Positions 36,059 through 37,842 of a DNA stretch of 64,000 nt are shown here, piece by piece. Below the pieces are notes generated by a model. It was not told the DNA's origin and made no database searches. It saw only the letters and a list, made by a program, of their open reading frames with translations. This DNA is from an uncultured Eubacteriales bacterium (GTDB taxonomy: Bacteria; Bacillota; Clostridia; Oscillospirales; Acutalibacteraceae), in the NCBI GenBank assembly GCA_948941465.1, contig CARATB010000002.1, forward strand, positions 10,921 through 74,920. The letters run 5' to 3'. Position 1 is the stretch's first letter. Each line of letters opens with the position of its first letter. A program made the translations under genes and the position numbers.

Positions 36059-36086
36059 TTGACATTTTTTTCCATATGTGTATAAT
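36059..36086 (+). promoter_or_regulatory. sigma-A promoter of the perR-rbr operon
   Basis: TTGACA (36059-36064), a 16-nt spacer, then TATAAT (36081-36086). Confidence 0.6.
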
Positions 36087-36115
36087 CTAAATTGTAATCA
36101 TTACAATTTAGATTA
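36083..36115. promoter_or_regulatory. PerR/Fur-type operator (perfect 16-1-16 palindrome)
   Basis: TAATCTAAATTGTAAT-C-ATTACAATTTAGATTA has the core TTGTAAT-C-ATTACAA, matching a 7-1-7 Per/Fur box. It overlaps the -10 hexamer. Confidence 0.65.
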
Positions 36116-36131
36116 TGCGAGTGGTGATAAC

Positions 36132-36536
36132 TTGAATATAGATATAATCAAAGAAACATTCAGACAAAAGGGTCTGAAGGCAACGCCACAGCGAATAGCG
36201 GTATATGAATTTCTTGTTGAAAACAGAATTCACCCTGATGTTGAAACTGTTTACAGTCAGGTCATCAAAAGCAATCCTTCATTTTCAAAAACAACAGTTT
36301 ATAACTGCTTAAAGGATTTGTCCGGCTGCGGATTGCTTATCCCGGTTATGATTGACAACGAAAAAATAAGATATGATGCCGATATCTCTTTTCATGGTCA
36401 TTTCAAGTGTGAAAAATGCGGCAGCATATTTGATTTTAAATGTGTTGATACTATAACTGAGGGTATTGAAGGCTTTGAAATAAAGCAAAAAGATGTATAT
36501 TACAGCGGTCTATGCAATCACTGTAAAAATAAATAA
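36132..36536 (+). CDS. perR: Fur-family peroxide-responsive repressor (PerR-like)
   Basis: GLKATPQRIAVYEFL is the Fur-family winged HTH. HGHFKCEKCG...CNHC is the Zn site. The TTG at 36132 lies after the operator, and the track GTG at 36078 lies inside the promoter/operator. Confidence 0.7.
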   Translation: MNIDIIKETFRQKGLKATPQRIAVYEFLVENRIHPDVETVYSQVIKSNPSFSKTTVYNCLKDLSGCGLLIPVMIDNEKIRYDADISFHGHFKCEKCGSIFDFKCVDTITEGIEGFEIKQKDVYYSGLCNHCKNK

Positions 36537-36560: not shown

Positions 36561-37097
36561 ATGGCAAAGAAGTATTTTTGTCCCGTTTGCGGCTATGAAA
36601 GTGACGAGCCAATTGAAATCTGCCCTGTTTGCGGCGTAAAAATGCAGGAGAGAAAGGACGATGTAACTGCTTGGGCTGCTGAGCATCAGGTAGGTATTAT
36701 CGACGGCGTAAGCGAGGAAATCGTTCAGGGTCTTCGTGATAACTTCAACGGCGAGTGCAGTGAGGTTGGTATGTACCTTGCAATGGCAAGAGTAGCTTTC
36801 AGAGAGGGCTATCCTGAAATCGGTCTTTACTGGGAAAAGGCAGCTTATGAAGAGGCTGAGCATGCTGCAAAGTTTGCTGAAATGCTTGGCGAAGTTGTAA
36901 CAAACTCAACAAAGAAAAATCTTGAAATGCGTGCTGCAGCAGAAAACGGTGCTACACTCGGCAAAACAGAGCTTGCAAAGCTTGCAAAGGCTGCAGGTCT
37001 TGATGCTATCCACGACTCAGTGCATGAGATGGCAAGAGATGAGGCAAGACATGGTAAGGCATTTGAAGGTCTTCTCAAGAGATATTTTGCTGACTAA
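36561..37097 (+). CDS. rbr: reverse rubrerythrin (N-terminal rubredoxin-like domain plus C-terminal di-iron four-helix bundle)
   Basis: [16 protein letters not shown] at the N-terminus. [10 protein letters not shown]...EEAEHAAKF...DEARHGKAF are the ExxH di-iron motifs. Confidence 0.9.
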
Positions 37098-37692
37098 TTC
37101 AATAATGTTAATGGGTACGGTTGCTGAACCGTACCTTTTTTTGCCTCATCTCTTGCCAAGCCTATCCAAATTTTGAAATCGTAGATTGATAAAATTTGGG
37201 AGAAAAGGTCCGGGGGACCTTTTCGTAGAGGGTTGCACATCGGACCGAGGCAAGACACGGTAAGGTATATCCAAGTTGCTACAAAACAGTCCACAGGACT
37301 GTTTTTCCCAAATCATAGATTTGGAGCAACGGTCTCTTGCACTTCGTGCAATTCACTCTTCTCAAGAGATATTTTGCTGACTAATTCAATAATGTTAATG
37401 GGTACGGTTGCTGAACCGTACCTTTTTTTGCCTCATCTCTTGCCAAGCCTATCCAAATTTTGAAATCGTAGATTGATAAAATTTGGGAGAAAAGGTCCGG
37501 GGGACCTTTTCGTAGAGGGTTGCACATCGGACCGAGGCAAGACACGGTAAGGTATATCCAAGTTGCTACAAAACAGTCCACAGGACTGTTTTTCCCAAAT
37601 CATAGATTTGGAGCAACGGTCTCTTGCACTTCGTGCAATTCACTCTTCTCAAGAGATATTTTGCTGACTAATTCAATAATGTTAATGGGTAC
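37070..37692 (+). repeat. exact 287-bp tandem repeat, 2 full units plus a 49-bp partial third unit, beginning inside the rbr 3' end
   Basis: Units 37070-37356 and 37357-37643 read as identical. The third copy, 37644-37692, is identical for 49 bp. The ORF track shows identical ORFs offset by 287 bp. Confidence 0.95.
37113..37142 (+). terminator. intrinsic terminator, repeat-unit version (second copy at 37400-37429)
   Basis: GGTACGGT-TGCTGA-ACCGTACC followed by T7. Confidence 0.8.
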
Positions 37693-37715
37693 AGCTTTTA
37701 TGCTGTACCCTTTTT
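37687..37715 (+). terminator. intrinsic terminator, distal (presumably native) version after the third repeat copy
   Basis: GGGTACAGC-TTTTAT-GCTGTACCC followed by T5. Confidence 0.8.
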
Positions 37716-37776
37716 ATTTTACATAGACCAATACTTTAACGAATTATGAATTTTTAGTAATATTTAGAAAAAACTA

Positions 37777-37809
37777 TTGACAAAACTGAAAAATGGATAT
37801 ACTATAAAT
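37777..37809 (+). promoter_or_regulatory. sigma-A promoter of the hrcA-grpE-dnaK(-dnaJ) operon
   Basis: TTGACA at 37777-37782, with TACTAT / TATAAA about 17 nt downstream, immediately before CIRCE. Confidence 0.6.
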
Positions 37810-37815
37810 ACAGAG

Positions 37816-37842
37816 TTAGCACTCGGATAGTGAGAGTGCTAA
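37816..37842. promoter_or_regulatory. CIRCE operator (HrcA binding site)
   Basis: TTAGCACTC-GGATAGTGA-GAGTGCTAA is an exact match to the CIRCE consensus TTAGCACTC-N9-GAGTGCTAA. Confidence 0.95.

Follow-up and report, generated by a model that had tools for sequence, protein, structure and literature searches.

The DNA behind the rubrerythrin gene (rbr) in the 64,000-nucleotide stretch analysed here (the window), from an uncultured bacterium of the Acutalibacteraceae, holds members of an uncatalogued, protein-less repeat family whose units, here called cassettes, sit just behind tRNA genes and conserved genes. Cassettes are built around a folded module, S, follow one layout, carry a short antisense segment (a') that co-varies with a segment (a) of the gene upstream, are widespread in one genus and patchy beyond it, and recur as tandem arrays in several genomes. 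The module itself is an uncatalogued structured family with unusually clear covariation. The rbr unit of the window is a cassette with a second S of the 'free' kind (type F) nested within it in reverse, the whole unit then having been duplicated in tandem. The features of the locus, in window positions, are as follows.

36561..37097, plus strand: rbr, rubrerythrin gene, host and target of the cassette (open reading frame; Pfam Rubrerythrin plus a rubredoxin-like domain).
37030..37047, plus strand: segment a, 18 nt of rbr coding sequence (..MARDEA.. region), exact complement of a'.
37070..37118, plus strand: c1, last 49 nt of the rbr region (last codons, stop codon, start of the terminator).
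37113..37142, plus strand: t1, intrinsic terminator carried by the unit; second copy 37400-37429.
37141..37158, plus strand: a', 18-nt perfect antisense copy of a, 7-8 nt before P2; second copy 37428-37445.
37160..37232, plus strand: S_A, three-way junction (model R1 78.3 bits; covariation), made up of P1 (37160-37165 with 37227-37232), P2 (37166-37199), GAG, P3 (37203-37223) and CGT; second copy 37447-37519.
37233..37265, plus strand: spacer x (37233-37246) and start of the second rbr-end copy.
37266..37356, minus strand: S_B, 'free' type-F module, reverse insertion (model R1 72.6 bits), reading on the minus strand GAGTGAAT, H0 (37337-37351), GAGAC, P1 (37325-37330 with 37275-37280), P2 (37308-37324) and P3 (37283-37305); second copy 37553-37643.
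37357..37643, plus strand: second complete 287-nt unit, 100% identical to 37070-37356.
37644..37720, plus strand: third unit, incomplete (c3, 37644-37692), which leads into another terminator, t2 (37687-37720), and has no a' after it.

From 37070 to 37692 the 287-nt unit runs through 2.2 copies that are 100% identical, and c1 is the first of three identical direct repeats, the others lying at 37357-37405 and 37644-37692. In an independent mouse-gut DNA run the unit forms a loop-like contig of 317 nt whose depth is 2.4 times that of its flanks, indicating that the tandem repeat is real and no assembly artefact. Downstream of S_A and the spacer a second copy of the gene end begins, in that 37247-37265 matches rbr 37041-37059 save for one synonymous difference and overlaps the last 6-7 nt of segment a. 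The 91 nt of S_B replace 10 nt of this copy (CATTTGAAGG). The rbr cassette of three other species (genomes G025, G001 and G027) has one S, and its second rbr-end copy (c2) is uninterrupted; on this comparison S_B is an insertion caught in place within sequence that is continuous in those species. S_B is 100% identical in the two tandem units, which places the duplication after the insertion. Across genomes, the end of rbr carries cassettes in three insertion registers within ~15 nt (one in G000 and G025, one in G016 and one in G002 and G063), each with a separate a' and a distinct start of the second copy, so that this one gene end was hit repeatedly and independently.

An earlier note, made from the sequence of the window alone, had read five hairpins in series within each unit (37166-37199, 37203-37223, 37283-37305, 37308-37324 and 37337-37351) as a single structured RNA scaffold of ~200 nt. 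All five are present and recur exactly 287 nt on, and the 198-nt core folds at -68.2 kcal/mol, as compared with -46.4 +/- 4.2 for shuffles (z -5.24, with 0 of 200 shuffles matching it; z -4.99 for the minus strand), in keeping with the note's expectation of a folding energy better than that of shuffled sequence. The core proves to be two independent copies, in opposite orientation, of a three-way-junction module with helices P1, P2 and P3, rather than one scaffold: the first two hairpins are P2 and P3 of S_A, the third and fourth are P3 and P2 of S_B, and the fifth is H0 of S_B. A long-range pairing that the note had proposed between 37227-37236 and 37326-37337 joins P1 strands of the two different modules, each of which has a better-supported partner of its own, and it thereby clashes with the covariation-supported P1 stems of both. 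Nor can this pairing be general, since other species have this cassette without its second module.

A genome search found pieces of the core elsewhere in the same genome, and reading of these sites gave the common module S. It is ~60-90 nt long (60-75 nt for the core three-way junction) and runs in the order P1 5' strand, P2 hairpin, GAG linker, P3 hairpin, CGT linker and P1 3' strand. P2 has the stem CCAAAT/ATTTGG and a loop of 3 to >40 nt, P3 reads AAACAGTCC-GGTG-GGACTGTTT or a compensated variant, and the junction bases are conserved across copies. A covariance model, R1, was built from eight copies. In an alignment of 72 distinct copies, 90.6% of cells pair and 20 of the 24 pairs show compensatory double changes, all six P1 pairs included; homologues thus bear out the conserved structured element that the note had proposed, by the covariation it had named as a check. 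None of 500 shuffles reached the observed pairing, number of double-changed pairs, number of double-changed cells or covariation score (four of five measures), and slid controls for the alignment paired in only 31-51% of cells. When 3 kb of the window region were scanned against Rfam at E values up to 10, S had no match and only chance hits were returned, the best being the ALIL pseudoknot at 12.9 bits. Mismatches of the G:U and A:C types within the stems are equally frequent overall (14 versus 14) and number 12 versus 2 at interior pairs, a bias that would also suit an RNA of the gene's strand.

The order of parts in a cassette is the gene with segment a; c, the gene end and terminator of ~66 nt; a'; 8 nt; S; ~12 nt of degenerate a; and a second c. 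The a' is a 10-19-nt perfect reverse complement of segment a, which lies within the gene upstream, and the relation seen for segment a of rbr is found at 51 other copies as well. Spacing is tightly kept: a' adjoins P1 on its upstream side, its 3' end lies 7-8 nt before P2 in 50 of 51 copies, and a and a' are a median of 66 nt apart (quartiles 63-68). Perfect a' segments of at least 10 nt accompany 27 of the 60 non-type-F copies, as against 1, 0 and 0 of 60 in three controls. The second gene-end copy begins 21-23 nt after P3 in 18 of 38 copies and overlaps the last 3-7 nt of segment a. Targets comprise tRNA genes of 10 isoacceptor types (Val, Pro, Met, Thr, Arg, Lys, Asn, Ala, Leu and Gly), in which segment a consists of the T-loop and the T-stem strand 5' of it, and, in the genome of the window, five protein genes (rbr, gyrB, argJ, a serC-like gene and one more), with rbr and gyrB recurring as targets in other genomes. 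Where the gene differs between species, a' differs with it, as seen for rbr (G000, G025 and G016), argJ (G000 and G031) and tRNA-Met (two genomes). Since the a:a' pair occupies the exact place that H0 takes in type-F modules, S seems to need a helix there.

Searches with R1 identified 10 strong and four weaker copies of S in the genome of the window. Within the genus 28 of 36 genomes contain S, one of them (G031) with as many as 49 matches, and in other genera of the family its distribution is patchy (6 of 119 genera, with 12 copies in one complete genome); it is absent from the 24 other families of the order that were sampled. The records that hold S are labelled Eubacterium sp., CAG:251, CAG:341, or Acutalibacteraceae or Oscillospiraceae MAGs. 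A total of 154 distinct copies could be sorted into 47 of type F, 41 behind an intact tRNA gene, 22 with an a' behind something else and 44 that are unclear. Upstream of S, type-F modules have GAGTGAAT, then a short hairpin with a co-varying stem, H0, and then GAGAC; the architecture of S_B is the same in G031, G015 and G159. Such copies often lie within larger palindromic elements, which in G031 are ~300 nt long and have 14-bp terminal inverted repeats. These repeats occur only in the S-enclosing elements of G031, the genome of the window having none, and the cassettes behind genes lack terminal inverted repeats, for which reason a MITE was rejected as a description of them. Type-F modules share a conserved GCAAGAGAC that looks like the target segment in rbr, a likeness indistinguishable from coincidence. 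Copies directly behind a gene (type 3) lie on the gene's strand, the module always being in the gene's orientation. Eight viral contigs contain S, only in host DNA at prophage / tRNA-Pro borders.

Tandem arrays with periods of 154-195 nt occur in G020, G023, G036 and G159, one triple among them, and their unit boundaries coincide with the base of the fold. An alignment of the flanks of S indicates that the repeated block often includes the degenerate a, the gene end, a' and even the P1 5' strand, from which it follows that the repeat unit corresponds to the complete fold, with its left edge where a begins and its right edge where P1' stops. In this fold both unit ends would meet on the unbroken a'-P1 strand, opposite one another as at a splinted nick. 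Many arrays end on a last gene-end copy that is again followed by a', the right end varying from 0 to 22 nt after this last a'; simple cut-and-paste of one unit predicts neither the variable right ends nor the terminal a'. Relic sites that have a' and lack S are present at rbr in G020 and at tRNA-Val in G008 and G013, and truly empty sites without either also exist. No empty/filled difference was found within the species of the window: the metagenome contigs searched gave 0 matches for the empty rbr allele and 0 for the occupied allele as well, so the species is not represented in them. One 2666-nt contig has one unit fewer, which may be an assembler collapse.

We looked for a protein that might accompany S. 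Clustering of 521 open reading frames around 80 copies recovered no recurrent family beside S other than the target genes themselves (rbr six times, gyrB four times). Among 41 genomes of the genus, TnpB (PF07282) was not found above the cut-off in any, IS110 (PF01548) was found in five and not in G031, the genome richest in S, and reverse transcriptase was found in eight and does not follow S. The Y1 transposase (PF01797) is present in 19 of the 41, including the S-less G008, G012, G013, G026 and G029, and was not found in the S-rich G019, G020 and G025. The genome of the window does hold an IS110 gene fragment; contigs with such fragments have no S. One copy of S (C17) adjoins a broken tyrosine integrase gene, which was rejected as a partner as 30 homologues of this integrase in the genus have no S nearby.

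Our preferred explanation, to which we give a little less than even confidence, is that the cassette is a base-pair-targeted, non-autonomous DNA element that would home to, and multiply at, gene 3' ends, those of tRNA genes and of conserved genes alike. While single-stranded, the intermediate would pair its a' with a to give a helix stacked on P1, bringing the a 5' end and the P1' 3' end opposite each other on a continuous splint strand; cutting and joining at the a / P1' point would then insert or multiply whole units, and the carried copy of the gene end would keep the target gene intact. We infer that the element acts as DNA, that it is cut at this position and that base pairing targets it. 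The patchy distribution, a copy number that varies up to 49 and the reverse nesting of S_B look like mobile DNA, and the ruler-like spacing, the terminator between a and a' and the lack of a conserved promoter point the same way, whereas the absence of a co-occurring enzyme, possible transcription, the array ends that simple cut-and-paste does not predict, the even overall mismatch count (14 versus 14), the lack of an empty/filled difference within the species and the want of a step that would create an a' for a new target count against it. The main rival, which we consider doubtful though far from negligible, is a trailer reading: S would be a structured 3'-trailer RNA, similar to RtT, in which a' pairs with the 3' part of the gene in read-through transcripts, the junction and the spare end directing processing or stability or yielding a stable small RNA, and the tandem units being by-products. 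This would account for the constant orientation of the module relative to the gene, the strong covariation together with the 12 to 2 wobble bias towards the gene's strand, and the co-variation of a and a' between species, as selection for the pairing would produce. A terminator closes every unit, several protein-gene sites have, on reading of the sequence, no visible terminator hairpin between the stop codon and a', and the rtT units of E. coli are made of like parts (per unit, 19 nt of tRNA end and an antisense piece of 10 nt). RNA-library contigs of two studies cover the rbr unit, and a further RNA-library contig (X19) stops in t1, although such contigs show neither strand, nor ends, nor absence of DNA carry-over. 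Against a trailer RNA stands an intrinsic terminator between a and a', found at rbr by a terminator scan and at many tRNA sites by eye, which makes co-transcription of a and a' exceptional. No conserved -10 element precedes a' across copies (a -10-like hexamer lies at a suitable distance in ~6 of 22), and a scan found no sigma-70-like site on the plus strand of the rbr unit. Pairing by a' would moreover unfold the T-arm of a tRNA, spacing of ~66 nt at unrelated genes is hard to explain by RNA function alone, and the spread, the 49 copies in one genome and the reverse nesting again have the look of mobile DNA.

We rank third, and as rather unlikely, the reading of cassettes as att scars or minimal integrase-less (CIME-like) derivatives, the repeats being attL and attR, and S with a' the arms of an attP. 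Direct repeats of the gene 3' end do flank the element, which has a precise left border within the T-loop and a variable right one, cassettes sit at classic integration sites, prophages use the same tRNA-Pro ends, one copy adjoins the broken integrase gene mentioned above, and an inverted site ~66 bp from the core recalls the arm sites that a lambda-type attP carries. An integrase has one site, however, and here a single scaffold is used at more than 12 targets, with an a' fitted to each; there is no integrase beside S at 80 loci nor any S beside the 30 homologues of the C17 integrase, and in the viral contigs S is on the host side of the att core. The stems keep pairing while their sequence changes, which argues for folding and not for palindromes read by a protein. 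The earlier note had compared each unit to a guide-type RNA of ~200-290 nt (omega- or bridge-like), with its protein gene elsewhere, a reading now largely refuted and very improbable. One part of it stands, in that there is indeed a segment antisense to the neighbouring gene, at 37141-37158 and so outside the hairpin core; this lies beside a conserved scaffold with a sense segment opposite, recalling the two target guides of a bridge RNA, and an IS110 gene fragment is present in the same genome. The kinship to omega or bridge RNAs does not stand: the scaffold is two modules, the second of which is absent from the same cassette in other species, no Rfam family matches, TnpB is found above its cut-off in 0 of 41 genomes and IS110 in 5 of 41 and not in the S-richest, contigs with IS110 fragments are without S, no gene other than the targets recurs beside the 80 copies, a second (donor) loop is lacking, and neither IS110 nor IS605 leaves long direct repeats on insertion. 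The accompanying idea that each unit is a transcription unit of its own, giving an independent small RNA, is sound as to the terminator that closes every unit and fails as to the promoter, none being conserved; the extended -10 that the note had placed at 37187-37195 (TGATAAAAT) lies in the variable loop of P2, has no -35 partner and is not conserved in other copies. Hardly more credible is an origin without any dedicated mechanism, in which hairpin-rich sequence by terminators is prone to replication slippage or template switching and gives rise to local duplications. The variable right ends of arrays, the a' relics without S and the 100% identity of the tandem copies in the window would suit slippage, but the same conserved module with its junction bases recurs at dozens of unrelated loci in several genera and at fixed distances of 8, 22 and ~66 nt.

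The closest published analogue of the cassettes is RtT/rtT of the E. coli tyrT operon (RF00391), repeats first described between about 1978 and 1991. Both form tandem units of 160-290 nt directly behind a tRNA gene, combine within every unit a short antisense piece with a sense copy of the tRNA 3' end from the T-loop onwards, and need no protein; we checked the E. coli locus, where the unit is 178 nt long and consists in part of a 19-nt tRNA-Tyr end and a 10-nt antisense piece. The two differ in that the rtT antisense pairs inside the repeated tRNA end whereas a' pairs just upstream of it, with an overlap of 3-7 nt, and in that S is found behind protein genes too and has 'free' copies. RF00391 had no match in the window region (E values up to 10) or in the whole genome (up to 1), the E. 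coli control being matched, and R1 found nothing in the E. coli tyrT locus, so that rtT is, as far as these sequence comparisons go, an analogue and not a relative. A preprint reports that under stress the exonuclease-resistant DNA of E. coli is enriched for the tyrT-rttR region, and calls the way in which rttR acts unknown (10.1101/2024.07.17.603846). We regard it as an unlikely proposition that the cassettes join the rtT repeats in an unrecognised class of protein-less elements targeted by base pairing, in which a folded single strand would cut and join at a gene 3' end with its own antisense segment as splint, settle at a constant ~66 nt downstream and bring a spare gene end, the chemistry coming from a universal host enzyme or from the fold and not from a dedicated transposase.

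Other systems share individual traits. Integrative elements that target tRNA genes, and CIMEs, likewise insert at the T-loop or the gene 3' end, are flanked by gene-end repeats, supply a replacement end and build up in tandem, whereas the cassettes have no integrase, measure 160-290 nt, use one scaffold for many targets and have co-varying stems as expected of a folded strand. IS200/IS605 elements, PATEs and REP sequences are also hairpin-based and gene-less, with a guide 5' of the hairpin foot and seamless insertion. The short guide of IS608 lies 5' of the hairpin foot and pairs with an upstream cleavage site, a topology that is mirrored by a', 8 nt 5' of P2 with its complement upstream. The cassette guide is, however, 10-19 nt long as opposed to 4 nt in IS200/IS605, lies ~66 nt from its target across an interval that is a copy of host sequence, and does not co-occur with the Y1 transposase. 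In the IS110 bridge RNA and the IS1111 seekRNA, antisense and sense target segments flank a structured core and share a few central bases; the cassettes have one antisense and one sense segment, both matching the target gene, around a core that is a three-way junction, and differ from IS110 in having no neighbouring recombinase gene, no donor loop and long direct repeats that would not be expected. Most of the S-bearing genomes, moreover, gave no IS110 match. The adjacent tnpB or iscB gene typical of TnpB/IscB omega-RNAs is missing beside S, and no omega-RNA family of Rfam matches the region. Tn7-like and CRISPR-associated transposons resemble the cassettes in using a site in a conserved gene end or tRNA and inserting harmlessly at a fixed distance downstream, which is 60-66 bp in type V-K systems as against the median of 66 nt for the cassettes; the cassettes are tiny and have no transposition genes, no Tn7-type ends and no 5-bp duplication.

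Should a' really serve as the cassette's address for its gene, the family would represent a very small base-pair-targeting system without a protein of its own, of interest for mobile-element biology and as a possible minimal targeting device, and it would offer a testable explanation for the tyrT/rtT repeats of E. coli. Even as a 3'-trailer RNA, S would be a structured family common in gut Clostridia that genome annotators currently miss. The cassettes also break genome assemblies. At three or more loci in the genome of the window, contig ends or gaps lie at S cassettes.

Two copies of S, the 60-75-nt three-way-junction module of the repeat cassettes, lie beside incomplete genes in the window's own genome (G000). 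On contig C17, a tyrosine integrase gene (L011:1930-2718) is split between two ORFs, with its N-terminal half missing; the truncation point falls exactly at the S copy, after which comes part of a tRNA-Arg-like 3' end. On contig C6, the "tRNA-Met" preceding S (L012 ~1400-1700) is a 3' fragment only, which begins at the anticodon loop and extends to the CCA end, and ARAGORN called no tRNA gene at this site. The C6 cassette is placed behind a tRNA remnant, and in both of its gene-end copies (repeated 3' ends) a -10-like sequence, TGTATTTAAT / TGTATAAT, precedes a', the antisense copy of a gene segment upstream of S.

S cassette repeats disrupt short-read assemblies. The serC-like and argJ cassettes of this genome coincide with an assembly gap (C36 7431-7530) and with the ends of contigs C43 and C14, which overlap by 55 nt. 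Fragments of an IS110-family transposase gene are also found at contig ends (C24:12-347 and C3:39-218), a location indicating that the element is probably a multi-copy IS; these fragments are unrelated to S.

G031, the genus genome richest in S, contains two high-copy composite elements of ~300 nt (L042-L061) with 14-bp terminal inverted repeats (TAAATTATAGTTTA) and numerous nested GC-rich hairpins, enclosing "free" S modules of type F. No transposase was identified for these elements. In three IMG/VR contigs (L193, L197, L198), S arrays directly adjoin prophages integrated at the 3' end of tRNA-Pro with the att core CACCTCGACCA. The arrays contain additional copies of this core and hence could serve as extra prophage integration sites. 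Several S copies also occur in certain public bins whose labels read Bifidobacteriaceae, Agathobacter rectalis or Bacteroides (L245, L233, L225 and similar), which suggests mislabelling or contamination rather than true hosts.

Candidate regulatory sites flank the rubrerythrin gene (rbr), host of the window's cassette:

36083-36115, perfect 33-nt palindrome in the promoter region of the Fur-family regulator gene
36123-36533, Fur-family regulator gene (Pfam FUR), immediately 5' of rbr
36561-37097, rbr
37777-37805, promoter-like site
37816-37842, CIRCE-type inverted repeat, TTAGCACTC-N9-GAGTGCTAA

The palindrome looks like a PerR/Fur-type operator of an oxidative-stress pair. The CIRCE-type repeat separates the promoter-like site from hrcA, as expected for an hrcA-grpE-dnaK operon.
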